This document shows, in pieces, positions 22,206-61,247 of a stretch of 64,000 bases of DNA; the stretch's first letter is position 1; each line of letters begins with the position of its first letter. Under the pieces are notes generated by a model. That model saw nothing but the letters and a program-made list of their open reading frames with translations. It made no database searches and was not told the origin of the DNA. The DNA is from an uncultured Gammaproteobacteria bacterium. GTDB taxonomy: Bacteria > Patescibacteriota > Patescibacteriia > UBA9934. The position numbers and the translations under genes were made by a program. The stretch covers positions 64,142-128,141 of the forward strand of contig CAYFMS010000002.1 of assembly GCA_964344415.1 (NCBI GenBank), written 5' to 3'.

Positions 22206-22340
22206 AAACTTTGTCCGTGAAGAATACTGAATGATATTTGCTTGAAGTTCAAGGACCGGAGCGGAGTGTACTGATGGGTACATGAAGCGAGGACCAAAGA
22301 ACTGAGGGCAAAGATCGTCAGTAGACAAGCGGATGACCGT

Positions 22341-29384: not shown

Positions 29385-29394
29385 GTTACCGTTA

Positions 29395-30399: not shown

Positions 30400-30430
30400 C
30401 AACGCTGCTCAGTGATGAGTGGCGTTTTTT
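30400..30430 (+). terminator. rho-independent terminator
   Basis: 'cgctgctcagtgatgagtggcg' followed by T6. Confidence 0.5.
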
Positions 30431-30475
30431 CTTGAGCTGAAGAAGGAAAGGAGTAGCATCTTCTTCAGCTCAAGA
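30428..30475 (+). repeat. hairpin repeat copy 1 (15-bp perfect stem, 14-nt loop 'gaaaggagtagcat')
   Basis: 'cttgagctgaagaag-gaaaggagtagcat-cttcttcagctcaag'. Confidence 0.8.
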
Positions 30476-30730
30476 AGCTGAGGCTCAAAGGGGGAAGCAT
30501 GTCCAAAGTGACTCTCGGAAAGGATACTGTGAATAGTGGTGTAACTACTATTCGTGGTAGTAACCGGTCCAAGCGGCGCAATGACTCGATCGATCAGGTT
30601 GATGTTCCGCGCCCGTCTCTGCAAATCGTACCTCGCGCTGATTGCGACAAAAACAATCGGCATCCTTGGTGGCGATAGCAGAACATCCCGTCCGACTGCA
30701 TTCATCTGTAGTCGGACGGAGAAATGTTTT

Positions 30731-30770
30731 CTAGATTGAAGAAGGAAAGGAGTAGCATCTTCTTCAGTCT
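30731..30770 (+). repeat. hairpin repeat copy 2 (13-bp stem with one G·U, identical loop)
   Basis: 'tagattgaagaag-gaaaggagtagcat-cttcttcagtcta'; shares a 31-bp identical core with copy 1. Confidence 0.8.
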
Positions 30771-30820
30771 ATGAAGACTGAAAAACGAAAATTCTGCCCG
30801 AAAAGGGCTTTGGAGGAATC

Positions 30821-45974: not shown

Positions 45975-46016
45975 GTTGAAGTTTCATCTCAGCGCACAGA
46001 ATGCGCTAGGAGAAAC
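45975..46016. repeat. 42-bp element copy 1 ('gttgaagtttcatctcagcgcacagaatgcgctaggagaaac')
   Basis: Identical to 46721-46762. Contains the hairpin AGCGCA-cagaa-TGCGCT and, on the minus strand, 'ATGAAACTTCAAC'. Confidence 0.9.
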
Positions 46017-46067
46017 CCCGGACATGCACCATGTGATGCAGTCCGGGAAGTTCGGCATCGAAGTCGT

Positions 46068-46703
46068 CTACTTCTTTGCCTGTTCGATGCGCCGCTGTTC
46101 TTGTGAGACTGCGGCATGGATCCTGCCGTCACCCAAGGACTTGTGCACATTCTTCGCTGCCATCAGCTGTGCGAATGTGAGTCCATTGAGTCCTTTTAGA
46201 CGCGCACCCTCCAGATTTGCATCCTTCAGATTCGCACCCTCCAGATCCGCACCAAACAGATTTGCGCCCTCAAGATTTGCACCTTTCAGATTCGTACCCT
46301 CCAGAACCGCACCGTCGAGATTTGCACCCATCAGATTCGTACCCTCCAGATCCGCACCAAGCAGAAACACACCGCTCAGTTCCGTACCCGCCAGAATTGT
46401 ATACGCCAGATTTGCATCCTCCAGATTCGCACAAAGCAGAAACGCACCCTCGAGATTTGCATCCTTCAGATTCGCATCCTTCAGACGCGCAGCCATCAGA
46501 CCCGCACCCATCAGATTCGCGCCCATCAGATTTGCGCCCATCAGATTTGCGCACCTCAGATGCGCACCCTCCAGATTCGCACCCATCAGATTCGCATCCG
46601 CCAGATTGATCACTGCAGATGGGTGTTCTTCTCGCCACGCATTGAAGGATTTGACCCCTTCTTCACCTTCACGCAACATCTCCAGCAATTCTTCCTTGGT
46701 CAT
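46068..46703 (-). CDS. pentapeptide-repeat protein
   Basis: About 30 tandem A(D/N)LxG-type pentapeptides ('ANLMGANLEGAHLRCANLMGANL...'); start 'MTKEEL' with RBS GGAGGAGG; GC-rich. Confidence 0.8.
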   Translation of the reverse strand: MTKEELLEMLREGEEGVKSFNAWREEHPSAVINLADANLMGANLEGAHLRCANLMGANLMGANLMGAGLMAARLKDANLKDANLEGAFLLCANLEDANLAYTILAGTELSGVFLLGADLEGTNLMGANLDGAVLEGTNLKGANLEGANLFGADLEGANLKDANLEGARLKGLNGLTFAQLMAAKNVHKSLGDGRIHAAVSQEQRRIEQAKK

Positions 46704-46720
46704 TAAGACCTCCTCCGTAT

Positions 46721-46762
46721 GTTGAAGTTTCATCTCAGCGCACAGAATGCGCTAGGAGAAAC
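46721..46762. repeat. 42-bp element copy 2
   Basis: Identical to 45975-46016; lies immediately upstream (minus sense) of the pentapeptide-repeat gene. Confidence 0.9.
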
Positions 46763-47385
46763 TCCAATCTATAACATCATCTGAGGGTGAGCTTGTATGC
46801 TCGTATGCATACGGCTAGCAGTGACGTAGATACGTATGCCAGCAAGAATCCCTGGCATGTGCCGCCAGTCAGCCGGAGCCGAGTGATGGCACTTGGAATT
46901 CAATAAGCTTATATCACCCAAAAGCGATATATCCTCCATACCTCCCGAGAGGGCTGCATGGAAACTCTCTCCCCCAGATGATGTAATAGATCAGCTGCTT
47001 TTAGCAGACGTACAAATGTAGCAAAAAATGGGCCTTTTGTCAAGGTGTCGTGAAGATTTTTTGGCTAATATTGGGGAATTTATAAAAGTAAGTAAAGCGA
47101 GTAAAGTTAGAAAAGTGAGTAAATAGGGCAGGTAAATCCAGTTTGGGATTACCCTTGTTTGAAATCCCAGCCTACGAGCTGGGATCCACTCGACAAACAG
47201 GGGATTCTCCGCCTTCGCTCGGCAGAGCTACGTCGGGCAAGCAAGGCCGGAATGACGGAAGACAAACTCCTTAAACTCTGTAAACTCATTTAAACTCTGA
47301 GCGAGTGCGCCCTCCTAACCTCCCTAACTTTACTCGCTTTTCTAACTTTTCCACCCCCTAAACCCTATTTTGCTATAATCCTCAT
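46763..47385. repeat. 623-bp non-coding region, GC-rich then mosaic repeat modules (long imperfect inverted repeat around a nested hairpin; modules E, D and F)
   Basis: 'gtaaagcgagtaaagttagaaaag' at 47097 pairs with 'cttttctaactttactcgctt' at 47325. Nested hairpin 'cccttgtttg-aaa-tcccagc-ctacga-gctggga-...-caaacagggg' at 47150-47215. Confidence 0.7.
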
Positions 47386-48207
47386 ATGAAAATTATTGGT
47401 CACAAAAAGCAGCGAATGTATCTTGAGAATGTCATGGACAATGATGCTCTTCATCATGCCTATCTTTTTTCTGGGCCATCTGAGACTGGCAAGAAAACGA
47501 TTGCCTTGGAAATATCTGCAAAATTATTAGGTGTTGATCACCCGAATCAAAGCGTGAATTTCCGCATGATTCAACCTGAAATTGATAAAAAAACAGGACA
47601 GAAAAAATCGTCAATTACTATTTCGCAGATTCAGGATATTCAAACGCTCACATCATCGGGTGGAATTGGATCGGGAAAAAGGATCGTCATTATCGATGAT
47701 GCGCATACAATGACGACGGCCGCGCAGAATGCTCTATTGAAAACGCTCGAAGAGCCATCGGCGAATACACATTTCTTTCTTATTGTGATTGATGATTCAA
47801 AATTGTTACCAACCATACATTCTCGTGCAATGAATTTGCATTTTGGTCTTGTCCCGCACAGCGAATACCCAGATGATTTGAAAGAAGTGTTTACAAAGCA
47901 ATCAGATGAACTGCGCGCGATTATTCATGGTCGCCCAGGAATGGTCATCGATCTGCAGTCAGGACATGATATGATGATTGAGAATGTACAGCGCATTGTT
48001 GATATTCGGTCAGCAAGGCCACATGAGCGAATGATGGCAGCGGAAAAAATGGCAAAAAGCTCCGCTGTAGAAATCGAACATTTCCTTCTAGACTACCTGT
48101 CAATCGCACGGTCAAAAGGGGAAGATATTGAACATGTTCTTACAGCGATGCAGTTACTTAAAATGAATGTAAATAAAACATTAGTCCTTGAAAAAGCAAT
48201 TTTATGA
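47386..48207 (+). CDS. holB: DNA polymerase III subunit delta'
   Basis: 'HAYLFSGPSETGKKTIA' AAA+ clamp-loader Walker A; 273 aa. Confidence 0.8.
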   Translation: MKIIGHKKQRMYLENVMDNDALHHAYLFSGPSETGKKTIALEISAKLLGVDHPNQSVNFRMIQPEIDKKTGQKKSSITISQIQDIQTLTSSGGIGSGKRIVIIDDAHTMTTAAQNALLKTLEEPSANTHFFLIVIDDSKLLPTIHSRAMNLHFGLVPHSEYPDDLKEVFTKQSDELRAIIHGRPGMVIDLQSGHDMMIENVQRIVDIRSARPHERMMAAEKMAKSSAVEIEHFLLDYLSIARSKGEDIEHVLTAMQLLKMNVNKTLVLEKAIL

Positions 48208-49253
48208 AATCAATATTGAAGCCATTTATTATTGTTGCGGGATTGCTCCTGATTGGGCAGGGGTGTTTTGGCGGCACGAGTCGAGCAAATGATGGCGGAC
48301 TATGGCAGTCTGGCGATGCAGGAGAGTCATGGGAGCAGCTTTCAAATTTGCCGCAATTGAGCGGTGTTGCGTCCATTGGTGGCGTAAATGTTCTTGATCT
48401 AGCGATTGATCCGAATGATGATGCTGTTTATTACCTCGGAACAGCTCAAAATGGATTATTCTATACACTTGACAATGCAAAGACATGGCAGCGACCGCGA
48501 CAGAAAGAATTTCAAAGCGGGCAAATATCAAATCTTGTGGTCCATCCAAAAAATAGCTGTATCGTGTATGGATTACGTGGCACAGAAATCATTCAAACCA
48601 TTGATTGCGCTCGAAGTTTTAAAGTTCTTTATCAGCAAACGGGCGGAGATTCTCTTACCGGTCTCGCCGTCGATTGGTTCAATCCAGACATTATCTGGGC
48701 GGGTACGAGCGACGGAGATGTGATTAAAAGTGTTGATGGTGGCCAAACATGGAGCGCGAGCTTGCGAGTCGGTGATGCAATTACGGCGATTGAATTAAGT
48801 AATGCCGACAGTCGAATTGTCATGGTTGGTACCGAAGACAAGGGATACTATTATTCCCAAGATGCTGGTGAAAGTTGGTTTGAATATGAGGACGAATTAA
48901 GTGACTATCGTGGTTCTGATGAAGTCTTTGACTTTTCTCAAACAGAAGATGGATCGCTCGTGGTCATGCTGACTTCTTATGGTTTGCTCGGGTCTCTTGA
49001 TGCCGGTGAGTCATGGGAGGCATTCTCACTTGTTACAGCGCCAGGTGAAATTGTGATCTATGATGTCGAGGTTGATCCAAATGATGCAAGCACCATTTAT
49101 TATGCAACTGACGGGACATTATATATATCGACTGATCAAGGTCGATCCTGGAATACGCAGTCATTACCATCCAGCCGCGCTCTGCTTGATCTGGAAATGC
49201 ATGATCACATCGACGGGCTGCTCCTTGGAGGATTTGCAGCGATTGACGATTGA
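48204..49253 (+). CDS. secreted BNR/Asp-box repeat (sialidase-like or Ycf48-like beta-propeller) protein
   Basis: Signal peptide followed by repeated S-x-D-x-G-x-(T/S)-W boxes ('SGDAGESWE', 'SVDGGQTWS', 'SQDAGESWF', 'SLDAGESWE', 'STDQGRSWN'). Confidence 0.7.
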   Translation: MKSILKPFIIVAGLLLIGQGCFGGTSRANDGGLWQSGDAGESWEQLSNLPQLSGVASIGGVNVLDLAIDPNDDAVYYLGTAQNGLFYTLDNAKTWQRPRQKEFQSGQISNLVVHPKNSCIVYGLRGTEIIQTIDCARSFKVLYQQTGGDSLTGLAVDWFNPDIIWAGTSDGDVIKSVDGGQTWSASLRVGDAITAIELSNADSRIVMVGTEDKGYYYSQDAGESWFEYEDELSDYRGSDEVFDFSQTEDGSLVVMLTSYGLLGSLDAGESWEAFSLVTAPGEIVIYDVEVDPNDASTIYYATDGTLYISTDQGRSWNTQSLPSSRALLDLEMHDHIDGLLLGGFAAIDD

Positions 49254-49427
49254 TAAGATGGATACGCAGAGTTTAAAGGAGTTTAGAAGAGTTTTATAGG
49301 AAATCTATTGCTCATCGACTACTTACTATTTACTACGAACTACTTACTCCTGTCATAATAATTAAAACATTGCAAAAAACATGGCTTTATCATAATCTGG
49401 CGGTACACATAAAGATGCAAAGAACAT

Positions 49428-49970
49428 ATGTCAATAGTAAATGAAGCAGGGCCACAATTTGATAAATCAATAGATCACCTCGCGCAGGAATTGCGAGGAT
49501 TGCGTACCGGAAGGGCGACTCCGACACTTGTCGAAGATCTTCAAATTGAATTATACGGTGCAATGCAGCCACTGAAGGCAGCGGCATCTATTTCAACTCC
49601 CGATGCCAGAACTATTCAGATCGAGCCATGGGATGCGAGTGCTGTTAAGGCAATTGAATCTGCCATTATGAAATCTGATATTGGAATTAATCCGAATGTT
49701 GATGGAAAGACGATTCGTTTGAACATGCCAATGATGACCGATGAAATGCGTCAAGAAATGGTAAAAAAATTAAAGGCTAAGATGGAAGATGCTCGCGTTT
49801 CAATCCGTCGTGTACGTGAGGACGTGAAGAAAAAGATTGAGGGACAAGATGGAATAGGAGATGATGATAAGCATGCTCAATTAGATGAGCTTGAAAAGAC
49901 TGTTAAGCAGTACAATGAACAAATTGATGGGTTGGGCAAAAAGAAAGAAGAAGAGATCACAACTATTTAG
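49428..49970 (+). CDS. frr: ribosome recycling factor
   Basis: 'LRTGRATPTLVEDLQIELYG' and 'AIMKSDIGINPNVDGKTIRLNMP'; 180 aa. Confidence 0.9.
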   Translation: MSIVNEAGPQFDKSIDHLAQELRGLRTGRATPTLVEDLQIELYGAMQPLKAAASISTPDARTIQIEPWDASAVKAIESAIMKSDIGINPNVDGKTIRLNMPMMTDEMRQEMVKKLKAKMEDARVSIRRVREDVKKKIEGQDGIGDDDKHAQLDELEKTVKQYNEQIDGLGKKKEEEITTI

Positions 49971-50088
49971 TCGCTTGTGAGTTAGCGATCTTTGTCCTCG
50001 GTTCTCCGGTCCTCGACACCGTACCTTTCAGTACGGCTTACTCCGGTCCTCGTACCTCGAACAAATCTCATCTAACTCACTGCGCGAC
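49970..50088. repeat. 119-bp TIR-bounded intergenic element, copy A1
   Basis: Left end 'gtcgcttgtgagttag', right end 'ctaactcactgcgcgac' (inverted), internal hairpin 'ccgtacctttcagtacgg'. It starts at the G of the frr TAG stop. Confidence 0.85.
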
Positions 50089-50285
50089 CGAGGTTCGTCA
50101 AAAACCATCCAGCATCCTGTGCGACTACGATTCTCCCATTTTGTCATCTCGAGCGAATGCGAGAGATCTCCTGCATATTGATTAGATTTCTCCATGCGGC
50201 CTTCGGCCTTAGTCGAAATGACGGATGGGAGCAATCTAACCCCTACACCCTAACCCCTACACCCTAAAACCCGTAACTACTCACT
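50089..50285. repeat. mosaic repeat modules (B, E and telomere-like 'cccctacaccctaacccctacaccctaaaaccc') running up to the glyQS start
   Basis: Shared modules with 51660-51903, 58930-59170 and 60208-60485. Confidence 0.7.
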
Positions 50286-51659
50286 ATGCCCGAAATTTCA
50301 ATGGAAAAAATCATGCGACTTTCTAAAGAACGGGGATTCATTTTCCCCGGTTCTGATATTTATGGAGGTCTTGCAAATTCATGGGATTATGGCCCGCTTG
50401 GGTCGCAAATGCGCATGAATGTAAAGAAAGATTGGTGGAAAAAAGTCGTTGAACAGCGGCGCGACATGTATGGACTCGACGGTGCGATCATGATGAATCC
50501 ACGCGTATGGGAAGCATCGGGGCATACATCATCATTTACTGATCCACTTGTCGAGGACAAGGTAACGCATAAGCGTTATCGTGCTGATCATCTCATCGAA
50601 GCAGCACTCCCAGATGTAAATGCTGATGGACTTTCTGTTGCTGAGCTCGATCGTTTGATTACAGAAAACAACATTAAAAGTCCAGATGGAAATGAATTGA
50701 CACCGGTCAAGACATTCAACTTAATGTTTGAAACAGGAATTGGAAAAACCGAGGGTGAAAAAGAGGCTGTGTATTTACGGCCTGAAACAGCGCAGGCCAT
50801 TTTTGTAAACTTCCAAAATGTGTTGAATGCGTCACGTGCACGGCTTCCATTTGGGGTTGCTCAGATTGGAAAGGCATTCCGCAATGAAATCACGCCGGGA
50901 AACTTCACATATCGCACGCTTGAATTCGAACAAATGGAAATTGAATATTTCTGTGAGGAATCAGAGTGGGAACAACATTTTGATGCATGGCAGAAATGGA
51001 TGGCTGATTGGGGTGAGAGCATTGGAATTGATGCTTCAAAACTGCATCCGGAAGACATTGATCCAGAAAAATTGGCGCATTATTCAAAACGCACCGTTGA
51101 CTTTGAATTTGAATATCCATTTGGAAAAAAGGAATTATGGGGTCTTGCATATCGTACGGATCATGATTTGAAAAATCATATGGAGGCGAGCGGAAAATCG
51201 CTTGAATATACAGATCCAAATGACAATGCTCGCAAAATCATTCCACATGTCATTGAACCATCGATGGGAGTTGATCGAACAATTCTTGCAATCATGCTCA
51301 GTGCATATGATGAGGAAGAAGTCGATGGCGATACTCGGGTTGTGATGCGATTTAAGCCTCATATTGCTCCATATCAAGTAGCGGTGCTTCCACTTTCAAA
51401 AAAGCCGGAATTGCAAAAGATCGCTCAGAAATTGAGTGATGATCTGTCTTCGGTGGCGAGAGTGACATATGATGAGACGCAATCCATCGGTAGGCGCTAT
51501 CGTCGTCAGGATGAAATTGGAACACCGTATTGTGTGACAATTGATTTTGACACCATCGATGACCAAGCGGTGACTATTCGTGACCGAGACACGATGCAGC
51601 AAGACCGCGTCAAAATCGATGAATTATCAGCGTATCTTGCACAGAAGTTATCAGGTTAG
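50286..51659 (+). CDS. glyQS: glycine--tRNA ligase (alpha2 dimeric GlyQS type)
   Basis: 'RGFIFPGSDIYGGLANSWDYGPLGSQMRMNVKKDWWKKVV' and class II motifs; 457 aa. Confidence 0.9.
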   Translation: MPEISMEKIMRLSKERGFIFPGSDIYGGLANSWDYGPLGSQMRMNVKKDWWKKVVEQRRDMYGLDGAIMMNPRVWEASGHTSSFTDPLVEDKVTHKRYRADHLIEAALPDVNADGLSVAELDRLITENNIKSPDGNELTPVKTFNLMFETGIGKTEGEKEAVYLRPETAQAIFVNFQNVLNASRARLPFGVAQIGKAFRNEITPGNFTYRTLEFEQMEIEYFCEESEWEQHFDAWQKWMADWGESIGIDASKLHPEDIDPEKLAHYSKRTVDFEFEYPFGKKELWGLAYRTDHDLKNHMEASGKSLEYTDPNDNARKIIPHVIEPSMGVDRTILAIMLSAYDEEEVDGDTRVVMRFKPHIAPYQVAVLPLSKKPELQKIAQKLSDDLSSVARVTYDETQSIGRRYRRQDEIGTPYCVTIDFDTIDDQAVTIRDRDTMQQDRVKIDELSAYLAQKLSG

Positions 51660-51903
51660 GACGGTATAAGTTTCATCTCTAATACTTATGGATCCCCTGC
51701 CTACCGGCAGGCAGGGATCCATCGCTGTCGTATTACGATGGATTCCGGCTCGGAGGCCGGAATGACGCGAAGCTCCTAAATCTCCTCGATCTCTTTTATC
51801 TCCTTCGCACCTAAATCCGTATATCTGTATTATCAGTACATCCGTAACGGTAACCCACTTACTATTTTCTACTAACTACTGACTGTTTATTATCGATTCA
51901 TGT
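51660..51903. repeat. mosaic intergenic repeat (hairpin 'ggatcccctgcctaccggcaggcagggatcc', modules E, D and G)
   Basis: 'cctaaatctcctcgatctcttttatctccttcgcacctaaatccgta' matches 60409-60450. Confidence 0.7.
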
Positions 51904-53181
51904 ATGAAAGTAATGAAATTAAATAACGGCATGCGTGTCCATGTAATCTCCATGCCATCAACATCAGCAATTACGGTACTCGTTCACACAAAGGTCGGTT
52001 CTCGTTATGAACCGAATCATCTATGGGGAGCCTCGCATTTTATTGAGCATCTCATGTTCAAGGGAACGGATCGGCGCCCTTCTACTGTTGATATTTCGCG
52101 TGAACTCGATCAATACGGAGCTCAATTCAATGCCTACACAGGCAAGGATAAGACGGGTTATTATGTAAAAATCGATTCAAAACATGCTGCGCTTGCGGTT
52201 GATTTGCTGCATGACATGATTTTCCATTCTAAGTATGATCCGGTGGAAATCGACAAAGAACGTCGTGTCATTATCGAAGAAATCAAAATGTATGAGGAAA
52301 ATCCAATCATGCATATTCATGATTTAATCGAGGAAGCAATGTTTGATGGCAGTACGCTTGGGAAAAATATTGCAGGAGATGCTGCGTCGATGCTGGCCAT
52401 GAAGCGAGAGGATATTATCGATTTTCGGGATAGAAATTACAATCCAAATCGCATGATTGTGACCCTCGCTGGGAATATTCCAGACAATATTATGGATGTT
52501 CTAGAATCTACATTTGGGACAGTGCCGCAGCGTGACGATGGATCGGACGGGTATTCAGATTTTTCACCCTCGGTCATTGCGAATGCTCCGAACATTTCTT
52601 ATCAACAAAAACCGCTCGAGCAGGTTCAACTTTCTATTGGATTTTATGCACCGGGGCGTCAGGATAAAGACATCTATGCGTCCAAGGTATTATCAACAAT
52701 TCTGGGCGGAACAATGAGTTCTCGATTGTTTATTGAAGTCCGTGAAAGGAGAGGGCTTTGCTATTCGGTTCGGTCCTCTGCAGATGGATATGACGATATC
52801 GGTGGATTTTTGATTAATGCGGGGCTTGATGCAGGTCGACTCGATGAAGCGGCTGAGGCAATCTTTAATGAGGTGCAAAAGGCAAAAAGTGGTGATATCA
52901 AACAAAAAGAGCTCGATTATGTGAAAGACAATATCGAGGGATCATTAAAACTCAGATTGGAAAATTCAACACAAATGGCTGAATTCGTCGGAAAACAAGA
53001 ATTGTGGTTCGATGAAGTTGAATCTCCTGAACAGGTGATCGACCATTATCGCTCCGTAACTCTTGAAGATGTACATAAGGCAGCTGAGCGCATATTCGAT
53101 ATGAATAATGTGTCTATCGCAGCCATTGGCCCTTATGCAAACGAAAATGATTTGATTGAGCATTTCAAGATGGTAAAGTAG
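51904..53181 (+). CDS. M16-family zinc metallopeptidase (insulinase-like)
   Basis: Inverted zincin motif 'HFIEHLMFKGT' (HxxEH); 425 aa. Confidence 0.85.
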   Translation: MKVMKLNNGMRVHVISMPSTSAITVLVHTKVGSRYEPNHLWGASHFIEHLMFKGTDRRPSTVDISRELDQYGAQFNAYTGKDKTGYYVKIDSKHAALAVDLLHDMIFHSKYDPVEIDKERRVIIEEIKMYEENPIMHIHDLIEEAMFDGSTLGKNIAGDAASMLAMKREDIIDFRDRNYNPNRMIVTLAGNIPDNIMDVLESTFGTVPQRDDGSDGYSDFSPSVIANAPNISYQQKPLEQVQLSIGFYAPGRQDKDIYASKVLSTILGGTMSSRLFIEVRERRGLCYSVRSSADGYDDIGGFLINAGLDAGRLDEAAEAIFNEVQKAKSGDIKQKELDYVKDNIEGSLKLRLENSTQMAEFVGKQELWFDEVESPEQVIDHYRSVTLEDVHKAAERIFDMNNVSIAAIGPYANENDLIEHFKMVK

Positions 53182-53186
53182 AGAGT

Positions 53187-53963
53187 ATGAAATACATTAT
53201 CGCTAATTGGAAAATGAATTTGGGTGTGCGTGAAAGTGTTGCGCTTGCACGGGGGATTTTGCGGTATATGCGTGGAAAAGATTCTCTTCCTGATCTTATT
53301 CTATGTCCATCATTTACGGCGCTTAGTGAGGTGTATAAGGCAACGGCTCGCAGTCGCAGTCAATTATGCGCGCAAAATTGTGGTCCTGAATATCGCAATG
53401 GAGCATATACAGGCGAAATTTCGCCATCACAGCTTGAAGATGTTCATGCGTCTTATGTGCTTATTGGCCATTCAGAACGCCGGCAGTTTTTTGGCGAAGA
53501 AGACGATATTATTGTGCAACGATACTGCGCAGCCAATGATTCAAAGCTCATTCCTATTCTTTGTGTAGGGGAAACAAAAGAGGAGCATGGAGATGGAAAG
53601 GCGCAAAATGTAGTCATCGATCAAGTAGCAGCGGTATTAAAGCATGTTGATATTTCTTCAAATAAACCCGTATTTATTGCCTATGAGCCTGTTTGGGCGA
53701 TTGGTAGTGGGTCATTGCCTGCTGCAAGTGAAATTGTCGCGATGCATCAATTGATTCGGCAAAAAGTTGCCATACTTCTTGATAGGGGCGAGGACACAGT
53801 CAAAGTTTTATACGGAGGATCTGTTACAGATGAAAATGCATATACACTTCTTCGAGAGCGTGAAATTGATGGTTTACTGATTGGCGGAGCGAGCCTTCGA
53901 TTACAGTCATTTACCGGCATTATTGATGCAGCTCAAGAAGTGATTACAGCACAGGAAAAATAA
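53187..53963 (+). CDS. tpiA: triosephosphate isomerase
   Basis: 'IIANWKMN', 'GHSERR', 'AYEPVWAIGSG'. Confidence 0.9.
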   Translation: MKYIIANWKMNLGVRESVALARGILRYMRGKDSLPDLILCPSFTALSEVYKATARSRSQLCAQNCGPEYRNGAYTGEISPSQLEDVHASYVLIGHSERRQFFGEEDDIIVQRYCAANDSKLIPILCVGETKEEHGDGKAQNVVIDQVAAVLKHVDISSNKPVFIAYEPVWAIGSGSLPAASEIVAMHQLIRQKVAILLDRGEDTVKVLYGGSVTDENAYTLLREREIDGLLIGGASLRLQSFTGIIDAAQEVITAQEK

Positions 53964-53964
53964 T

Positions 53965-54771
53965 ATGTTTTTTACGATTTTGTTGATTATTCTGACAATA
54001 GGAGGTCTTGCAGCAATTATTTGGCTCGTGTGGAAAAAGTTACCGCAGCTGAGAGTGGTGAATCCAGACACATCTCGTGAATCGCGCGCGCGGCGCAAGA
54101 AAAATGAAATACTGCGTAATCGCATTGAAAGAACGGGCGGAAAAGTTGCGCGTTCAATCAATACTCGCGCAGTGAATCCGACGCTGAAATCCATGCAAAA
54201 CATTATCCGAACCGTTGCAGGGAAATTAACAGCCGTCGAGAGATCATATAAAGAAAAGCAAAAAATCGCTGGGCGCAGCATGACAGATCCATCCGTGATT
54301 CAAGAATTTATCGATGAAGCGGAATTGTATTTAAAGAATGAAGAGTTTGAACGCGCAGAGAAGAAACTGATCGATATTATTGGTCTTGATCAAAAAAATG
54401 CGCATGCATATGAATTGCTCGGGCGTCTGTATTTGCAGCGGCGGGACATTCAATTAGCTGAGGAAACATTCAGATTTTTAACAAAGCTTGCGAAAAATGA
54501 TGCGAGTGCACATGCTTATCTTGGCGAGGTTTTGAGTGATCAAGGTAAGGATACTGAAGCATATACGTATTTCGAACGGGCGATGAAATTAAGTCCAAAA
54601 AATCCGAAATATCTAGATTTTTATATTGATTCTGCCATTCGGCAAATGAAAAAACATGAGGCAATTGTTGCACTCGAACGTTTGCGGCAGGTGAATCCAG
54701 ACAATAAAAAGATTGAGGGGTTTGAGAAAGAGATTGAAGCGTTGCCAAGCTACAAAAAGCACAAAAAATAA
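53965..54771 (+). CDS. TPR-repeat protein with an N-terminal TM anchor
   Basis: TM helix followed by TPR-like repeats ('AHAYELLGRLYLQRRDIQLAEETF'). Confidence 0.6.
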   Translation: MFFTILLIILTIGGLAAIIWLVWKKLPQLRVVNPDTSRESRARRKKNEILRNRIERTGGKVARSINTRAVNPTLKSMQNIIRTVAGKLTAVERSYKEKQKIAGRSMTDPSVIQEFIDEAELYLKNEEFERAEKKLIDIIGLDQKNAHAYELLGRLYLQRRDIQLAEETFRFLTKLAKNDASAHAYLGEVLSDQGKDTEAYTYFERAMKLSPKNPKYLDFYIDSAIRQMKKHEAIVALERLRQVNPDNKKIEGFEKEIEALPSYKKHKK

Positions 54772-54773
54772 TA

Positions 54774-55060
54774 GTCGCTTGTCTGCTGGCGCACTTTGAA
54801 CTCCAATCATCGAATCTATCCTCATCGTACGTTTCAGTACGCCTGCGGTAGATTCTCGATTGTCATCCAAATTGCATCCAGCATCCTTCGCGACCTCGAC
54901 ACTGTGCCTTTCAGTTCGGCTTACTCCGGTTCCAAGTTAAGGTTGAACCTTGACTGCGACTCGGAATAGGTTCAACCTTTCTATGCTCACTGCGCGACCG
55001 AGGTTCATCCAATATCCTGCGCGACTTATCGACTACTACTCACTACTATATAAAGTGCAC
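54774..55060. repeat. composite intergenic element A4 (two degenerate TIR units plus module B and a 'aaggttgaacctt...aggttcaacctt' palindrome pair)
   Basis: Starts 2 nt after the TAA stop with 'tagtcgcttgt'. Contains 'cgtacgtttcagtacg' and 'tgcctttcagttcggcttactccgg'. Ends with 'ctcactgcgcgac'. Confidence 0.75.
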
Positions 55061-55339
55061 TCGCGAATCTGCCGCCACCTGCGAGACTGTCACACTGCAT
55101 GCGGCAGGAGCGAGGAATTGCAAAACAGCCGATAGGAATGAACAGATCAATGTATTAAGAAAAATAAAGACATTCCTACTCTCTGTTTTGCCCGAGCGAT
55201 GACGCTTTATGCATGTGACAAAGCGAGCACTGGCGGCGTTCTTTTGCTTACTTTTCTTTAAAGAAAAGTAAGAAGAAAACAAGAGATCCCTCCCGCCTTC
55301 GCTCGGAATGACGCTTGGCGATGGATACCGTGTCAAAAT

Positions 55340-55372
55340 AAAAAACCGCCGTATTAACGGCGGAACGATCGA
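55340..55372 (-). terminator. rho-independent terminator for the 55391..55897 gene
   Basis: On the minus strand: CCGCCG-ttaata-CGGCGG followed by T8. Confidence 0.6.
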
Positions 55373-55390
55373 CCATGCCGAAGTGACTTC

Positions 55391-55897
55391 TCAATGAACC
55401 GTATGCTGATCAGGAAAGTAGATGCATTCCTTGGGCACGGCGATGATGAAGTGGTCTAGGACATCGATAAAAAGAACATGGAATTCTCGAGAGTGCTCTC
55501 GATTGCCCAAATCGACAATCATTCGATTTGTCAGTGTCCAGTCTTCATAGTTTGCGGGCCTTTCCTCGTGGCAGTAGTCATCATGGATCTCTTTATAGGT
55601 ATGTGGATCAATGATGATATGCTTTACATCCGAATTGCTTCTGCTGATGAAAAACAGCGGCAGGTCGAGGCGGTGGTGAAGCCATTCATGTTCGAACATG
55701 TCGTTCTCGACAAGGAACTCGTCCATCACTGCTGCGAGCTGCTTCTGAGACCAGATGTCGCCCTCACCCAATTCATCAAGGAAAAGTTCAGGAAATCCCT
55801 TCTGCAATCCGCGGACAATGTACGGATCTGTTCCAAGTACGATGATGGTCTGGAGCGGCGACGGCTTCGATTGTAACTCCTTCCAATTGATATGCAT
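55391..55897 (-). CDS. hypothetical protein (168 aa)
   Basis: RBS GGAGGTG 5 nt before the ATG 'MHINWKEL'; own terminator; divergent from nrdA. Confidence 0.5.
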   Translation of the reverse strand: MHINWKELQSKPSPLQTIIVLGTDPYIVRGLQKGFPELFLDELGEGDIWSQKQLAAVMDEFLVENDMFEHEWLHHRLDLPLFFISRSNSDVKHIIIDPHTYKEIHDDYCHEERPANYEDWTLTNRMIVDLGNREHSREFHVLFIDVLDHFIIAVPKECIYFPDQHTVH

Positions 55898-55992
55898 ACG
55901 CACACCTCCTTTCAAGTGGACATACAAGGGTAGCATGGCAGATTCCAAGCGTCAATCATTTTATAAATAAATACACAAAAAATACCACAACC

Positions 55993-56038
55993 ACAATATA
56001 TAGTGTTATCAACAGTTTAACCCCACAATATATTGGGT
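55993..56038 (+). promoter_or_regulatory. tandem NrdR boxes (ACAATATATAGTGT and ACAATATATTGGGT), centres about 32 bp apart; box 2 overlaps the -35
   Basis: Near-palindromic 14-mers matching the NrdR operator consensus acaCwAtATaTwGtgt, upstream of nrdAB. Confidence 0.6.
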
Positions 56039-56056
56039 CATTCAAAAAATATTTAC

Positions 56057-56062
56057 TATAAT
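56057..56062 (+). promoter_or_regulatory. -10 TATAAT of the nrdAB promoter (putative -35 TTGGGT, 18-nt spacing)
   Basis: Followed by a leader of about 130 nt before the nrdA ATG. Confidence 0.4.
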
Positions 56063-56193
56063 GTTCATCGAGCCTGAGACATAATTTTCGCAGACGGTTC
56101 GTCGCCTCTGCTGGTGAACTCGCAGGTGATTAGCATCCCCCGCTAAGCATAAATGGATCCCATTTTGCCGAGCGGTTTTAATTTTCTATTTTT

Positions 56194-58929
56194 ATGAGTA
56201 ATCCTACGATGAATTCCATTTTTGTGACCAATAGACATGGTCAGCGTGTTCCATTTGATCCGGCTCGTATTCGCAAGGCGCTTGAAGCGGCAGCGCGTGG
56301 TTATGAAGGGTATATTAGCCTCGACACAATCATGGAAGATTTTGACATCAATATCTATGATGGGATGTCGACAACGCAGATCAACAAAACGCTTACAATG
56401 GTGCTTGCGTCACGAATCGAACAGGTGCCTGAATATGGAAATATTGCAGCGCGCGTTATCTTGAATGATTTATCAAAAGATATCTTTGAGCGCATTAGTA
56501 GTGACCCGGATTATGAACAGCGTTATCGGGATGCATTCCGGAAGCAGCTATACCGCGCGGTAGAAGAAGAAAGACTCGACCCGCGACTTCTCATGTTTGA
56601 CATCGACCGTTTGTCGCAAGCGCTAAAACCGGAACGCGATAGTTATCTGACATATTTGAGTGTTTCAACATTGAAGGGACGGTATTTGTTGCATACGGCT
56701 GAAAAGGAAATTTTAGAGCTTCCACAATATTTTTGGATGCGTGTTGCCATGGGACTCTCTCTTGATGAGAAAGATCGGAATGAAAAAGCGATTGAGTTTT
56801 ATAATCTCATTTCAGAGCTTCGCTATGTGCCGTCTACTCCAACACTCTTACATTCTGGGACAACGCATCCGCAAATGAGCTCTTGCTACATTATGACAGT
56901 GAGTGACCGCTTGAATAATATTTTCAAGACCTTTGCTGATCAGGCTCAATTGTCAAAATGGTCTGGAGGTGTTGGTAGTGACTGGTCAAGCATTCGAGCG
57001 ACCGGCGCGCATATTCACACCATTAATACGCATAGTCAGGGCGTTATTCCATTCCTTAAGATTGTTGATTCCACAACGGCGGCAATTAATCGTAGTGGAA
57101 AGCGGCGTGGCGCAACATGCGTTTACCTTGAAGCTTGGCATCATGACATCGAAGATTTCTTAGAGCTGCGAAAGAATACGGGTGATGAACGTCGACGTAC
57201 GCATGACATCAGCACAGCGAACTGGATTCCTGACCTTTTCATGAAGCGTGTCATTGCGAATCAAGAATGGACATTATTCTCTCCAGATGAAGCGCCTGAT
57301 TTGCATGAATTGTACGGGCAAGAATTTGAAAAGCGATACGAGGAATATGAACAGAAGGCAGATCGCGGTGAAATCCGATTGTTCAAGCGCATGCCCGCAA
57401 TGGATTTATGGCGCAAAATGCTCACCATGATTTTCTCAACGGGGCATCCTTGGATCACATTCAAAGATCCTTGCAATGTGCGATCGCCTCAGGATCATGT
57501 TGGCGTTGTACGTAGTTCAAATCTCTGCACGGAAATCACATTGAATACTTCAGAAGATGAAACAGCGGTTTGTAATCTTGGTTCTGTAAATCTTTCTCGC
57601 CATGTCGTGAATGGGAAGGTTGATCGCGATATGCTGCGTCAAACGGTGCTCATTGCTATGCGAGCTCTCGATAATGTGATTGATTTGAATTTCTACCCAA
57701 CGGCGGAAGCGAAAAATTCGAATATGCGTCATCGTCCAGTCGGACTTGGAATCATGGGTGTTCAGGATGCGCTGATTAAGCTCGGTATGCACTTTGATAG
57801 CGATGTTGCTGTTCAATTCTCTGATGAGCTGCAGGAATACATTTCTTATTATGCAATTATGGGTTCATCTATGCTTGCACGTGAAAAGGGGACATATTCT
57901 AGCTATCGAGGTTCAAAGTGGGATCGGGGCATTTTCCCAGTAGACACACTTACGCTTCTTGAGCAGGAGCGAGGTGAGGAAATTCAGGTTCCAAAAACGC
58001 AGTCTCTCGATTGGTCTGAAGTTCGTGATCATGTGAAGCGTTATGGAATACGAAACTCGAATACGATGGCGATTGCTCCAACGGCGACGATTGCAAATAT
58101 TTCGGGTTGCTTCCCAACGACAGAACCGATGTACAAGAATATGTATGTAAAGTCGAATCAGGCCGGGGAGTACACGATTATCAATACCTATCTTGTCGAT
58201 GATTTACGAGCGGTGAATAAGTGGAATATCGACATTATCAATAAAATCAAAATTAATGACGGAAATGTTCAGGGTATAGCGGATATTCCGGAAGAAATTC
58301 AGCAAAAATATAAAGGAGTATTCGAAATTGATCCAATATGGGTGATTCGTCACGCTTCGCGCCGTGGAAAATGGATTGATCAGAGTCAGTCAATTAACTT
58401 GTTCTCGACGAGTACTTCAGGAAAATTTTTCAGCGAGATGTACATTAATGCATGGAAACATGGATTGAAGACGACATACTATCTGCGAACGCTTGCTGCA
58501 TCACAGGTTGATCGCGCAACAGTTGATACAACAAGTGAAGGACAGAAATCAGATGCTACTTCGCAGCAGGCTGCTCAGCAGGTCCAACCGGAAACGATTC
58601 CAGTGACACTTCCAAATGTCCAAGTCCCTGAGCCGGTTCCTGCGAGTGCCATTCCTGCCGCATCGAGTCCTGCTCCGACAGTGGCGCAGCCAACTCCCGC
58701 CGCTCCACCGGTTGCTCCTCCAGTAGCTCCGCCTTCATTTGCTGCAGCGCCTCCACTTGCAGCGCAAGCAATGCATACCGCTCCTACATCTTCATCGAGT
58801 CCAATGTCGGTGACAATGCAGGGGGCGGGTCCAGGTGCAATGCATGTCGATGAAAAGGTTGAGGTGGAAGCGGTGAGTGTGCCGAAGTTGTGCAAGATTG
58901 AAGACCCAACCTGCGAAAGCTGTCAGTAG
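56194..58929 (+). CDS. nrdA: ribonucleoside-diphosphate reductase class Ia alpha subunit, with an unusual Pro/Ala-rich C-terminal extension
   Basis: N-terminal ATP-cone, catalytic 'SSNLCTEITL'. A tail of about 110 aa ('PVPASAIPAASSPAPTVAQPTPAAPPVAPPVAPPSFAAAPPLAAQ') ends in 'CKIEDPTCESCQ'. Confidence 0.9.
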   Translation: MSNPTMNSIFVTNRHGQRVPFDPARIRKALEAAARGYEGYISLDTIMEDFDINIYDGMSTTQINKTLTMVLASRIEQVPEYGNIAARVILNDLSKDIFERISSDPDYEQRYRDAFRKQLYRAVEEERLDPRLLMFDIDRLSQALKPERDSYLTYLSVSTLKGRYLLHTAEKEILELPQYFWMRVAMGLSLDEKDRNEKAIEFYNLISELRYVPSTPTLLHSGTTHPQMSSCYIMTVSDRLNNIFKTFADQAQLSKWSGGVGSDWSSIRATGAHIHTINTHSQGVIPFLKIVDSTTAAINRSGKRRGATCVYLEAWHHDIEDFLELRKNTGDERRRTHDISTANWIPDLFMKRVIANQEWTLFSPDEAPDLHELYGQEFEKRYEEYEQKADRGEIRLFKRMPAMDLWRKMLTMIFSTGHPWITFKDPCNVRSPQDHVGVVRSSNLCTEITLNTSEDETAVCNLGSVNLSRHVVNGKVDRDMLRQTVLIAMRALDNVIDLNFYPTAEAKNSNMRHRPVGLGIMGVQDALIKLGMHFDSDVAVQFSDELQEYISYYAIMGSSMLAREKGTYSSYRGSKWDRGIFPVDTLTLLEQERGEEIQVPKTQSLDWSEVRDHVKRYGIRNSNTMAIAPTATIANISGCFPTTEPMYKNMYVKSNQAGEYTIINTYLVDDLRAVNKWNIDIINKIKINDGNVQGIADIPEEIQQKYKGVFEIDPIWVIRHASRRGKWIDQSQSINLFSTSTSGKFFSEMYINAWKHGLKTTYYLRTLAASQVDRATVDTTSEGQKSDATSQQAAQQVQPETIPVTLPNVQVPEPVPASAIPAASSPAPTVAQPTPAAPPVAPPVAPPSFAAAPPLAAQAMHTAPTSSSSPMSVTMQGAGPGAMHVDEKVEVEAVSVPKLCKIEDPTCESCQ

Positions 58930-59047
58930 TTGCTTGTGAGTTAGCGATCTTTGTCCTCAGTTCTCTGGTCCTCGACACCGTACCTTTCAGTACGGCTTAC
59001 TCCGGTCCTCGAACTTCGAACAAATCTCATCTAACTCACTGCACAAC
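58929..59047. repeat. 119-bp TIR element, copy A2
   Basis: 'gttgcttgtgagttag ... ctaactcactgcacaac'. About 90% identical to A1 and begins 0 nt after the nrdA TAG. Confidence 0.85.
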
Positions 59048-59170
59048 TAAATCTCGTCCAAATTGCATCCAGTATCCGTTGTGAATATTCGAAATCCTGA
59101 GCCTGTCGAAGGATCTAAGTGATAAGACTACACCCTATCCCCTAAACCCTACACCCTAATAACCCATGCT
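59048..59170. repeat. mosaic modules B, C and F ('ccctatcccctaaaccctacaccctaataaccc') up to the nrdB start
   Basis: Module C 'ttcgaaatcctgagcctgtcgaaggatctaag' is shared with 60333 and, inverted, with 29455. Confidence 0.7.
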
Positions 59171-60205
59171 ATGCCAATCCAAAAAACAACAGAACGTCCA
59201 AATATCAATCAACGTCGAATTATAAACGGTGAAGATGCTGACGTGATTCAGCTTTTCCCGCTCAAGCATCACTTTGCTTGGGATGCATATCACACTGGGA
59301 ATGCGAATCACTGGCTCCCAACTGAAATCAACATGCAACAGGATGTCGAACAGTGGCGACATCCAACGCTGATTACGCCAGATGAACGACATGCATTCAA
59401 AACGGTTCTTGGATTCTTCACAACGGCTGATTCTATTGCGGCGAATAATATTGTTATTGCGATGTATCCTCACATCACATCACCGGAGGTGCGCATGTTC
59501 CTCCTTCGGCAAGGGTATGAAGAGGCGATTCACACGCAGTCATATCAGCATATTGTGCAAACGCTTGCACTTGATGAGGGTGAAATTTTTAACATGTATC
59601 GCGAGGTAGATGCGATTTACAACAAGGACGCATTCATTCTGAGTTTTAATGAGGGAATTTTTGATAAGAATTTCAAAACAGGGACGCTCGAAAGTGATCA
59701 GCTATTCCTTGAAAATATGATTATTTTCTCGCTGATCATGGAAGGTATTTTCTTCTATTCTTCTTTTGCGGTCATTCTTGGATTCCAGCGGCAGAATAAA
59801 TTGGTTGGTTCTGCTGAGCAGATTCAGTACATTATGCGAGATGAATCAGCGCATCTGAATTTCGGAATCAATTTGATCAATGCAATGAAGGAAGAAAATC
59901 CTGCGCTTTGGACGCCGGCATTCCAGCAGCGTGCAATTGATTTGGTAAAGCAAGGGGTTGAGCTTGAATACACATTTGCCGCTTCAGTATTCCCGAAAGG
60001 AATATTCGGACTAACAGCGGATGGCTTCCGTCAATACATTCAATATATCGCTGATAAGCGATTGAAGGCCATCGGTTTGCCAGCGCAGTACAATAATCAG
60101 AATCCATTCCCATGGATGAGCGAAGCGATTGACCTGCGAAAGGAAAAGAATTTCTTCGAAACGCGAGTTTTGGAATATCAAACTGGCGGAAACCTCGAGT
60201 GGTAG
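59171..60205 (+). CDS. nrdB: ribonucleoside-diphosphate reductase class Ia beta subunit
   Basis: Di-iron ligand region ('EEAIHTQSYQHI', 'DESAHLNF') and the ferritin-like R2 fold; 344 aa. Confidence 0.9.
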   Translation: MPIQKTTERPNINQRRIINGEDADVIQLFPLKHHFAWDAYHTGNANHWLPTEINMQQDVEQWRHPTLITPDERHAFKTVLGFFTTADSIAANNIVIAMYPHITSPEVRMFLLRQGYEEAIHTQSYQHIVQTLALDEGEIFNMYREVDAIYNKDAFILSFNEGIFDKNFKTGTLESDQLFLENMIIFSLIMEGIFFYSSFAVILGFQRQNKLVGSAEQIQYIMRDESAHLNFGINLINAMKEENPALWTPAFQQRAIDLVKQGVELEYTFAASVFPKGIFGLTADGFRQYIQYIADKRLKAIGLPAQYNNQNPFPWMSEAIDLRKEKNFFETRVLEYQTGGNLEW

Positions 60206-60207
60206 GG

Positions 60208-60327
60208 GTCGCTTGTGAGTTGGCGATCTTTCGCTTCAGTTTTCCGTTGCTCATTCACCGTACGTTCCAGTACGCCTCATTCCGCTACTCAAACTTCAAC
60301 GAAATATCATCCAACTCACTGCGCGAC
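60208..60327. repeat. 120-bp TIR element, copy A3 (more diverged)
   Basis: 'gtcgcttgtgagttgg ... ccaactcactgcgcgac', internal 'ccgtacgttccagtacg'; begins 2 nt after the nrdB TAG. Confidence 0.8.
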
Positions 60328-60485
60328 CTTGATCGAAATCCTGAGCCTGTCGAAGGATCTAAGCGACTTCGCTCGGGATGACGACCTACAACCTCACACA
60401 TCTCTCCAACCTCCTAAATCTCCGTTATCTCCTTCGCGCCTAAATCCGTAACGGCAACCCTAAACCCTAATAGCTAACTGTATCT
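60328..60485. repeat. mosaic modules C, E, D and F ('caaccctaaaccctaatagc') up to the xth start
   Basis: Modules shared with 51740-51860 and 59085. Confidence 0.7.
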
Positions 60486-61247
60486 ATGAAACTCATATCT
60501 TGGAATGTAAATGGCGTGCGTGCGGCGGTTCGAAAGGGTTTTCTTGATTGGCTTGAAAATGAGAATCCGGACATTTGTTGCCTTCAAGAAACAAAGGCAC
60601 ATGTCGAACAATTGACGCCCGATGTCGTGCATCCAAATGGGTATATGGGGATTTGGTCGGAAGCCCAGAGGAAGGGGTATAGCGGCACAGCGACATTCAC
60701 AAAAGATAAGCCTCTATTTACACAGTCGAATTTTGATGAGAATTGGCTCGATGAAGAGGGGCGTGTTGTTTTAACGGAACATGAAGATTTTTATCTCTTC
60801 AATGTGTATTTTCCAAATGGCGGCCGCGGCGAAGAGCGCTTAAAATATAAACTTGATTTTTACGATAAATTCTTGGAATACATCGAAAATTATCGAAAGA
60901 AAGGGAAGGGGATTATTGTTTGCGGCGATGTAAATACGGCGCATCATGAAATCGATTTGGCAAGGCCAAAAGAGAATATAAAAACATCTGGATTTATGCC
61001 GATTGAGCGGGAATGGCTTGATAAATTAGTCGATCATAAATATCACGATACGTTCCGCATGTTCAATCAGGAAGGTGAAATGTATAGCTGGTGGGATATG
61101 AAAACACGGGCGCGTGATAGAAATGTTGGATGGCGTATTGATTATTTCTGGGTTTCGGATGAAATAAAAGACCGCGTGAAAAATGCATTTATCATGACTG
61201 AAGTTTTGGGGTCCGATCACGCTCCCGTTGGAATCGAATTCAAATAA
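60486..61247 (+). CDS. xth: exodeoxyribonuclease III (AP endonuclease)
   Basis: 'MKLISWNVNGVRA' and the EEP-family catalytic residues. Confidence 0.85.
   Translation: MKLISWNVNGVRAAVRKGFLDWLENENPDICCLQETKAHVEQLTPDVVHPNGYMGIWSEAQRKGYSGTATFTKDKPLFTQSNFDENWLDEEGRVVLTEHEDFYLFNVYFPNGGRGEERLKYKLDFYDKFLEYIENYRKKGKGIIVCGDVNTAHHEIDLARPKENIKTSGFMPIEREWLDKLVDHKYHDTFRMFNQEGEMYSWWDMKTRARDRNVGWRIDYFWVSDEIKDRVKNAFIMTEVLGSDHAPVGIEFK

Follow-up and report, generated by a model that had tools for sequence, protein, structure and literature searches.

We analyzed a 64-kb window, meaning the whole stretch of DNA considered here, from a 768-kb contig of an ENA metagenome assembly. The host belongs to the Patescibacteria (candidate phyla radiation, CPR), and its nearest NrdB relatives, at 69-77% identity, are metagenome-assembled genomes (MAGs) of Magasanikbacteria, Uhrbacteria, and UBA926. 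CPR genomes are ~1 Mb and tightly packed, and their non-coding elements are almost unexplored. Pfam named the neighboring genes in the window as those for ribosome recycling factor (RRF; frr), a tetratricopeptide repeat (TPR) protein, the large and small subunits of ribonucleotide reductase (nrdA and nrdB), an Exo_endo_phos nuclease, and the alpha and gamma subunits of ATP synthase (atpA and atpG). Next to these genes lies a repeat of ~120 nt, hereafter the unit, which is the subject of this work. The original prediction, an earlier reading of the same DNA, had described 119-bp units bounded by terminal inverted repeats (TIRs) that start at stop codons. Our two covariance models (described below) agreed on exactly five full units in the window, four following frr, the TPR gene, nrdA, and nrdB and one inverted between atpA and atpG (bit scores are for the first and the second model, in that order):

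49970-50088, minus strand: full unit directly following the stop codon of frr; the purine-rich model strand is the minus strand, and the C-rich strand is co-directional with frr; matched at 49973-50083(-) with 105 and 96.8 bits.
58929-59047, minus strand: full unit in the nrdA-nrdB spacer; 100.8 and 94.4 bits; the nrdA stop codon TAG provides the first three bases of the stem.
60208-60327, minus strand: full unit after nrdB and upstream of xth; 102.5 and 93 bits.
54774-54895 (core 54777-54889), minus strand: full but diverged unit of a second subfamily, after the stop codon of the TPR gene; E 6.3e-10; 58 and 74 bits.
22215-22335 (core 22219-22330), plus strand: full inverted unit filling the atpA-atpG spacer, 13 nt past the atpA stop and 10 nt before the atpG start, with its purine-rich strand in the sense of the genes; E 8.3e-15; 67.3 and 74 bits.

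The first three of these are the 119-bp units that had been predicted, and they carry the quoted TIR sequences and the central hairpin ccgtacctttcagtacgg. A profile made from these three picked up the diverged unit after the TPR gene, the truncated unit listed below, and the inverted atpA-atpG unit, which the original prediction had missed. In a self-BLAST, the frr and nrdA units were 87% identical over 161 nt, and either of them was 77.5-78.5% identical to the nrdB unit over ~120 nt. The arm changes that distinguish the nrdB unit from the other two are compensated (GAGTTAG/CTAACTC to GAGTTGG/CCAACTC). Three of the five window units end in GTCGC...GCGAC, and all five have GCTTGT near the 5' end. 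The frr stop codon begins 1 nt ahead of the first paired base, and the corresponding distance is 0 nt for nrdA and 4 nt for both nrdB and the TPR gene; the predicted adjacency of stop codon and stem (within 4 nt) thus holds for all four genes, whereas the predicted overlap of the element with the stop codon TAG holds for frr and nrdA but not for nrdB. A further claim, that most intergenic spaces between holB and xth are built from these modules, was overstated, as the unit occupies four of the eight larger spacers.

A region described as degenerate or duplicated (54774-55060) is indeed repeat-related, but it resolves into three different things, namely the full diverged unit listed above, a truncated unit, and a solo right arm. 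The partial copies in the window are as follows:

~54894-55000, minus strand: truncated unit consisting of apex and right arm, into which a small palindrome of the CAAGGTTGAACCTTG type is inserted; nhmmer match to model positions 43-122, E 2.9e-7.
50106-50125, plus strand: solo right-arm fragment CATCCAGCATCCTGTGCGAC, from a motif count.
55006-55025, plus strand: second solo right-arm fragment, from a motif count.

The truncated unit gave an apex-only covariance-model match at 54890-54932. The 20-mer CATCCAGCATCCTGCGCGAC, one of the further modules that had been proposed, is the right arm of the second subfamily; it matched three times in the window against 0.01 expected, once at the right end of the 54777-54889 unit and twice as a solo copy.

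Each unit is a single imperfect hairpin over its full length, 120-130 bp long and non-coding. The quoted TIRs are only the base of this hairpin. "TIR-bounded" therefore misdescribes the unit, because the whole unit is the hairpin, its apex is most conserved, and its ends are most variable between genomes. Read along the purine-rich strand, a variable outer stem is followed by an A bulge and an internal loop of tandem G.A (GGAUGAGAU ... AGAUCGCC in the type found in the window), then by variable middle stems with purine-rich internal loops between them, and finally by a conserved apical stem-loop, GAGCCGUAC-UGAnnn-GUACGGUGA. By inspection, a segment with two-fold symmetry near the apex holds the conserved unpaired residues, as tandem G.A loops and an A.A mismatch. 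The two strands do not fold equally well: the frr unit reached -57.1 kcal/mol on the minus strand versus -38.6 kcal/mol on the plus strand, and across the window units folded the ranges were -55.7 to -57.1 versus -37.2 to -41.7 kcal/mol, with z-scores of -7.2 to -9.8 (minus) and -4.2 to -6.4 (plus).

To follow the family beyond the window, we searched a metagenome collection with a 22-nt apex motif and used two covariance models. The first model, built from 12 apex-motif hairpins, retrieved 55 full copies, and the second retrieved 61. In all copies the strand orientation was set by the asymmetric apex sequence and not by fold energy. The 55 copies were aligned on the model, so that the alignment is fitted to the structure and most of its metagenome members were picked through the apex motif; in it, standard pairs occupied 88.8% of cells versus 56.0% in shuffles, double changes were found at 34 of 38 pairs, and the covariation score was 0.74 (shuffles, 0.18; slid controls, 0.07-0.11). 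Between copies, the sequences of the outer and middle stems are unrelated, and pairing is kept nonetheless. The structure of the unit is maintained by compensatory change. A covariance-model test of this kind had been proposed with the original prediction, and the covariation it returned is very strong. Mismatches are also distributed unevenly between the strands, the purine-rich strand carrying 141 G.U versus 52 A.C and 146 purine-purine versus 30 pyrimidine-pyrimidine oppositions.

Altogether more than 60 copies with one common geometry were found, in CPR genomes and on metagenome contigs whose GC content is 29-70%; CPR origin was verified only for the GTDB genomes, and the remaining copies are on metagenome contigs. 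The apex-motif scan alone gave 69 loci in 62 distinct contexts, of which 44 are ~120-nt hairpins with the geometry seen in the window. Many copies found by covariance model lack the exact apex motif, and CGTAC...GTACG is still kept in copies found without it. The host has five full copies in the 64 kb of the window and seven in ~81 kb of contig: the 17 kb that adjoin the window on the right contain the other two, and the 10 kb to its left contain none. Several metagenome contigs also carry multiple copies (five in L121, four in L105, and three in L109). These are the marks of a dispersed family and not of a local duplication confined to one stretch, given the copy at 22 kb, the two beyond the window, and more than 50 elsewhere. 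Weak profile matches directly after stop codons in three CPR relatives share the apical hairpin and have quite different arms. Among 80 GTDB nrdB loci, the element was present in three CPR genomes only and in 0 of 53 non-CPR loci. The exact left-arm sequence had no match among GTDB species representatives, and no family match was found in phage and plasmid collections; a single apex-motif match on a viral contig (L154) was rejected, as neither covariance model matched it.

The units are not rRNA, tRNA, or a known RNA family. Across the whole window, only two tRNAs reached the Rfam gathering threshold, and among matches up to E = 10 over 46700-60500 none that overlaps a unit is credible, the sole overlap being a Streptomyces small RNA at 13.4 bits (E = 6). 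We rejected a relationship to signal recognition particle (SRP) RNA, 6S RNA, or a hammerhead, for which there is only short word likeness (CCGCAACGC, and GAUGAG with tandem G.A) and no Rfam support. The window units also contain GUACGAGGACCGGAGU, which is 2 nt off the sarcin-ricin loop of 23S rRNA; a fragment of that loop was discarded as an explanation, since other members of the family do not conserve GUACGAGGACCGGAGU and rRNA gave no match. Full-text literature searches returned no description of an element of this kind in CPR bacteria, and the family is apparently undescribed.

We then considered where the copies lie. Two window units are inside operons (nrdA-nrdB and atpA-atpG). Elsewhere, units follow rplE, rplF, rplR, and secY in L121, rplF and secY in L109, and secY in L130. 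L121 is from the same metagenome sample as L094, and L094 is identical to the UBA926 locus L012 in its element and in the sequence immediately on either side. In many copies the next start codon is only 10-44 nt away, and copies are also found within tRNA clusters. It is unusual for a ~120-nt repeat to survive inside operons for ribosomal proteins, ATP synthase, and ribonucleotide reductase. Placement is polar as well. For 28 copies the preceding gene and the C-rich strand have the same sense, with the model boundary no more than 15 nt from the stop codon or tRNA 3' end of that gene, and flush placement in the opposite sense was counted only three times in the context table. Among 26 copies examined in detail, the stop codon mostly starts between 6 nt before and 2 nt after the first paired base. 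Opposite-sense copies instead sit 5-13 nt upstream of a gene start; six of these genes are tRNAs, and a seventh such copy, on the window's own contig, is upstream of an apparent tRNA start. In both classes the end facing the adjacent gene is the 3' end of the purine-rich strand, which is the closer end in ~45 of 55 copies. Placement at gene boundaries, as had been predicted, is thus real and general, and together with its fixed polarity at stops and before tRNAs it offers a handle on the mechanism of insertion or selection. No conserved target motif was found at the junctions between element and host. Insertion specific to one replication strand was considered and weakened by L105, where both orientations occur within one co-directional gene cluster. 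At L105:6474-6911, a tRNA-Ala/tRNA-Leu pair is flanked by two inverted units, with the same element end facing the tRNAs, in an arrangement that looks like a composite transposon.

Several comparisons suggest that copies have moved. Loci L140 and L153 have only the 128-130-nt unit in common, at 98.5% identity over 130 nt, with unrelated flanks and direct duplications of 3-4 bp, GAT(A) and TGA(A). Perfect 4-bp duplications flank 7 of the 61 copies versus 2.0 expected (P ~0.006). The copies at L113:843 and in L131 are 90% identical and adjoin different tRNA genes. Occupied and empty versions of the nrdA-nrdB spacer both exist, as a presence/absence comparison of orthologous spacers had been expected to reveal for a mobile element: the spacer is 4-75 nt long and element-free in most relatives and 157-241 nt long where the element is present (the window, L018, and L022). 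The window itself has copies that are truncated, nested, or reduced to a solo arm. Occupation of the same junctions in distant genomes points to retention instead: units follow secY in three genomes, rplF in two, and nrdB in two, and lie between nrdA and nrdB in three. In GC-rich contigs (0.64-0.70), the members at L126:1309-1510, L097:2859-3111, and L115:1299-1417 are each enclosed by an extra inverted repeat, CCCGGAAACCCCAGTTGG ... CCAACTGGGGTTTCCGGG; these three loci have only the element in common and differ in their flanks, and the L097 member has an insertion of ~90 nt in one arm. At least one short frr contig, L003 (L002-L004 are other assemblies of the same population), ends inside a unit, suggesting that the repeat breaks short-read assemblies.

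The reading we favor, with moderate confidence, is a mobile palindromic element of some Patescibacteria lineages, similar to miniature transposable elements with inverted repeats (MITEs) and to ERIC, that is tolerated or co-opted within transcripts. It would have spread as a non-autonomous element moved in trans by an enzyme, and a staggered-cut transposase would fit, because the target duplications are short. Copies would persist mainly in two harmless settings: flush with a stop codon, the mRNA then carrying the C-rich strand, or, in the other orientation, just upstream of a tRNA or ORF (open reading frame) start. The folded hairpin would keep two neighboring cistrons close together. Some copies may have come under purifying selection, which would suggest that they were co-opted as RNA (or DNA) structures between cistrons, such as elements for processing or stability.

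The units resemble palindromic MITE-type repeats such as ERIC and Correia; the original prediction had drawn a likeness to MITE, REP, Correia, or RPE-type elements. Like MITEs, the unit is small (MITEs are under ~300 bp), non-coding, multi-copy, and dispersed. Every copy has inverted repeats at its ends, which are similar within a genome, different between genomes, and less conserved than the apex. Like the ERIC (IRU) elements of enterobacteria and Yersinia, it is a whole-element imperfect palindrome (~127 bp in ERIC), non-coding, found in either orientation, and located in transcribed intergenic DNA including the 3' ends of genes. ERIC copies undergo co-transcription and influence the fate of mRNA (PMC10969869). 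The units differ from ERIC in host phylum, in their conserved apex and freely variable stems, and in a strand-asymmetric fold with tandem G.A loops, and the ERIC core, taken from the ERIC2 primer, had no window match within three mismatches. Correia (NEMIS) elements of Neisseria, which are likewise small, abundant, and gene-adjacent, are defined by a fixed 26-bp TIR and a TA duplication. Unit ends, in contrast, show no TA rule, and the Correia TIR had no window match within three mismatches. RNase III cleaves the hairpins of Correia copies, which are co-transcribed (PMC10969869). Compared by description only, the RPEs of Rickettsia and the mycobacterial MIRUs resemble the units in being tolerated within or between operon genes; unlike the units, RPEs insert in frame inside ORFs, and MIRUs are not long hairpins. 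The ends of MIRUs overlap the stop and start codons of flanking genes.

A number of observations weigh against a mobile element of this kind. No transposase or recurrent partner gene was found near any copy (in the window, 20 kb beyond it, the element-bearing loci, and L090), and all-against-all clustering of 884 flanking ORFs gave housekeeping families only. A target duplication is lacking in most copies, including all five in the window, and the test for 3-bp duplications was at chance level. Across genomes the termini are the least and the apex the most conserved part, the reverse of MITEs defined by their transposase, and part of this apex conservation is built in as an ascertainment bias, because the apex motif served as bait for most metagenome copies. 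With RNA parameters, 55 of 61 copies are more stable on the purine-rich strand (mean -59.2 versus -47.9 kcal/mol), and a strand-asymmetric fold combined with polar placement is not predicted by symmetric cut-and-paste transposition. Copies in the same genome are highly diverged yet each is compensated, which is more like a functional structured element than decaying selfish DNA. Finally, in one orthologous pair (L012:6741 and L018:6156) the element is 93.5% identical, compared with 73-75% for the flanking ORFs and 70% for the spacer; it is unusual for an element to be better conserved than the essential genes around it. Because the conserved apex, the asymmetric fold, and the polar placement do not fit a textbook MITE, explanations in terms of a host RNA structure or folded single-stranded DNA stay alive.

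A host-functional, cis-acting RNA structure is a possible but rather unlikely alternative. Here the unit would be intercistronic in polycistronic mRNAs and in tRNA precursors, would be recognized by an RNase or an RNA-binding protein, and would set processing, stability, or translational coupling in highly expressed operons. The very strong covariation and the conserved unpaired purines would be expected of such a structure, as would a single geometry shared by hosts whose GC content runs from 29 to 70%, the repeated occupation of certain operon junctions in different genomes, and the excess conservation of the orthologous copy over its flanking genes (93.5% versus 73-75%); the base of the hairpin would moreover bring an upstream stop codon near a downstream start. 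However, ~70% of copies place the less stable C-rich strand in the mRNA (-47.9 versus -59.2 kcal/mol), both orientations occur in the co-directional L105 cluster, and the element is missing at the same junctions in most close relatives. Near-identical copies in unrelated flanks with target duplications, and the existence of truncated and nested copies, also argue for mobility instead. A related proposal, to which we give a fairly low probability, denies that the element is selfish: it would be a conserved structured module of Patescibacteria whose purine-rich strand is active, either as RNA from tRNA leaders and operon transcripts or as folded single-stranded DNA, and which is recognized by a lineage-specific protein and organizes core growth operons (those for ribosomal proteins, secY, ATP synthase, ribonucleotide reductase, and tRNAs). 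If this were true, the unit would represent a new and widespread class of non-coding element in a phylum with almost no known regulatory RNA. The exactness with which the hairpin geometry is kept across hosts of such different GC content is in any case unusual.

We regard it as improbable that the purine-rich strand acts primarily as folded single-stranded DNA, moved by a structure-recognizing HUH/Y1 transposase (as in REP/REPIN-RAYT systems and IS200/IS605 derivatives) or by an integrase (attC-like). The fold asymmetry does hold with DNA parameters (57 of 61 copies), G.T and tandem G.A pairs are on one strand, variable stems surround a conserved structure and apex, and one element end is placed against the gene. 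REP/REPIN-RAYT elements resemble the units as ~100-nt hairpins that are extragenic and long-lived, keep structure over sequence, and presumably fold as single strands. REPs, palindromes of 20-40 nt, have a head of GTAG or CGTC, and two of them in inverted arrangement make up a REPIN (PMC3733652). The unit, unlike these, is a single ~120-nt hairpin with a conserved apex, and its GTAC/GTAG lies inside the apical stem and is not a REP head; no RAYT (Y1 transposase) gene was seen in the ~120 kb of the 768-kb host contig that was examined or in the fetched loci. Integron attC sites, such as the ~124-bp repeats of Vibrio cholerae, are 60-140-bp imperfect palindromes that run from the stop codon of the upstream ORF; they vary in sequence and keep their structure, and their folding strand is antisense to the ORF; most copies of the unit likewise begin at a stop codon and have an antisense folding strand. 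In contrast to the conserved apex of the units, the terminal structure of attC is variable, and the units adjoin housekeeping operons and tRNAs. We therefore rejected identity with attC: by inspection, the ends of the 61 copies have no conserved GTTRRRY/RYYYAAC boxes, and the neighbors are core housekeeping genes and not cassettes. No integrase or Y1 gene was seen near element copies. HUH-type transposition leaves no target duplication, whereas the youngest pair (L140/L153) has one, and the mixed orientation in L105 argues against strict coupling to a replication strand.

Very unlikely, in our view, is a family of small RNA genes in which RNase P frees a purine-rich hairpin RNA from tRNA leaders, the RNA then acting in trans, perhaps on complementary copies embedded in mRNAs. 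The six copies that precede a tRNA 5' end by 5-13 nt and have their purine-rich strand in the tRNA sense, and the seventh before an apparent tRNA start on the window's contig, would suit such a role, and the fold favors the same strand. Most copies, however, have the opposite sense and are 22-44 nt from the next gene, which leaves no room for an antisense promoter. No conserved promoter motif was found upstream of the purine-rich strand, and a regional promoter scan stayed at the shuffle level (28 found versus 27.8 expected); an antisense promoter was dismissed on these grounds. By inspection, tRNA-linked and mRNA-embedded copies of the host are complementary only in two 7-nt apex segments. 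We likewise set aside a small ORF on the purine-rich strand: some copies are crossed by a frame that starts with ATG, but many have no such ATG, and the variation is paired and not codon-like.

That the units are Rho-independent terminators or plain 3'-end stabilizers of the upstream genes, a role put forward in the original prediction and in keeping with stable hairpins directly after stop codons, is hardly credible: no T-run (U-tract in the RNA) was found after the hairpin on either strand in the copies examined, units lie inside operons between cistrons that need co-transcription with 10-44 nt to the next start, and in most copies the better-folding strand runs antisense to the gene upstream, which weakens a simple mRNA-stabilizing structure as well. 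A terminator scan called only short sub-hairpins inside two units, while canonical hairpin-plus-T-run terminators are used elsewhere in the host genome, one of them between rpmG and a unit. The units are not transcription terminators, because they stand between co-transcribed cistrons without a T-run in a genome that uses canonical terminators elsewhere. That rpmG locus, ~7.8 kb to the right of the window (L156:18276-18510), has a peculiarity of its own, in that the rpmG terminator and the first 13 nt of the unit are duplicated ~180 nt downstream (GCCACATCGAGTGGCTATTTTTTAGATCAGMTACATT); the second terminator copy is followed by different, repeat-rich sequence with ATCGGATCTC iterations.

The element is one of two things, a genomic parasite that has become very well adapted or a regulatory structure that was co-opted. 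It also has practical consequences, as it inflates the calls of "hypothetical ORFs" that read through units, and it could be used as a strain-typing marker.

The spacers of the window hold further repeats outside the hairpin family:

59094-59114 (plus), 60338-60358 (plus), and 29459-29479 (minus): short hairpin module ATCCTGAGCCTGTCGAAGGAT, three exact copies versus 0 expected.
51779-51821: spacer module matching 60408-60450; no covariance-model match.
51803-51858: spacer module matching 29381-29438 in inverted orientation; no covariance-model match.

Among the remaining modules that had been proposed, ATCCTGAGCCTGTCGAAGGAT is thus real as a separate hairpin, whereas CGCTCGGRATGACG is at chance level in the window once two mismatches are allowed, and CGACTACTTACTATTTACTAC has a single match within three mismatches. 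The modules were also said to recur in inverted orientation after murG and upstream of rpmA; the 119-nt unit does not recur after murG, where 29381-29486 holds other short modules instead, and the stretch upstream of rpmA resembles the modules only loosely.

We noted three small repeat or palindrome families unrelated to the unit: a 40-55-nt hairpin repeat near a tRNA gene (30427-30481 and 30727-30781), TAAGTCCGACTTAAA palindromes followed by A-runs (9189-9243 and 9584-9638), and CAAGGTTGAACCTTGATGTGGATAA (4821-4878). The last of these small palindromes recurs inside the truncated unit, at ~54940. A pentapeptide-repeat protein gene at 46068-46733(-) (Pfam E 6.7e-47) is the source of a 15-nt periodicity at 46151-46660, and it is bracketed by 45-nt direct repeats (45975-46019 and 46721-46765, 98% identical), as if inserted or duplicated. 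G-poor, CCCTAAA-like runs (ccctaaaccctaa, ctacaccctaa) precede start codons at 47340-47385, 50222-50285, 59128-59170, and 60450-60485. Upstream of holB, TGCTATAAT is only 7 nt from the ATG, suggesting a leaderless mRNA or one with a very short leader. The GC skew is negative in spacer-rich stretches and positive in genes. Lastly, two CPR relatives (L013:9858-9980 and L011:4890-5020) carry a different long hairpin repeat, GTCATTGCGAGGA...CTCGCAATGAC, in the nrdA-nrdB spacer, and the snippets CGGAATGACG / CGCTCGGGATGACG at 47190-47260, 51735-51770, and 60367-60383 of the window look like pieces of that family, which is widespread.

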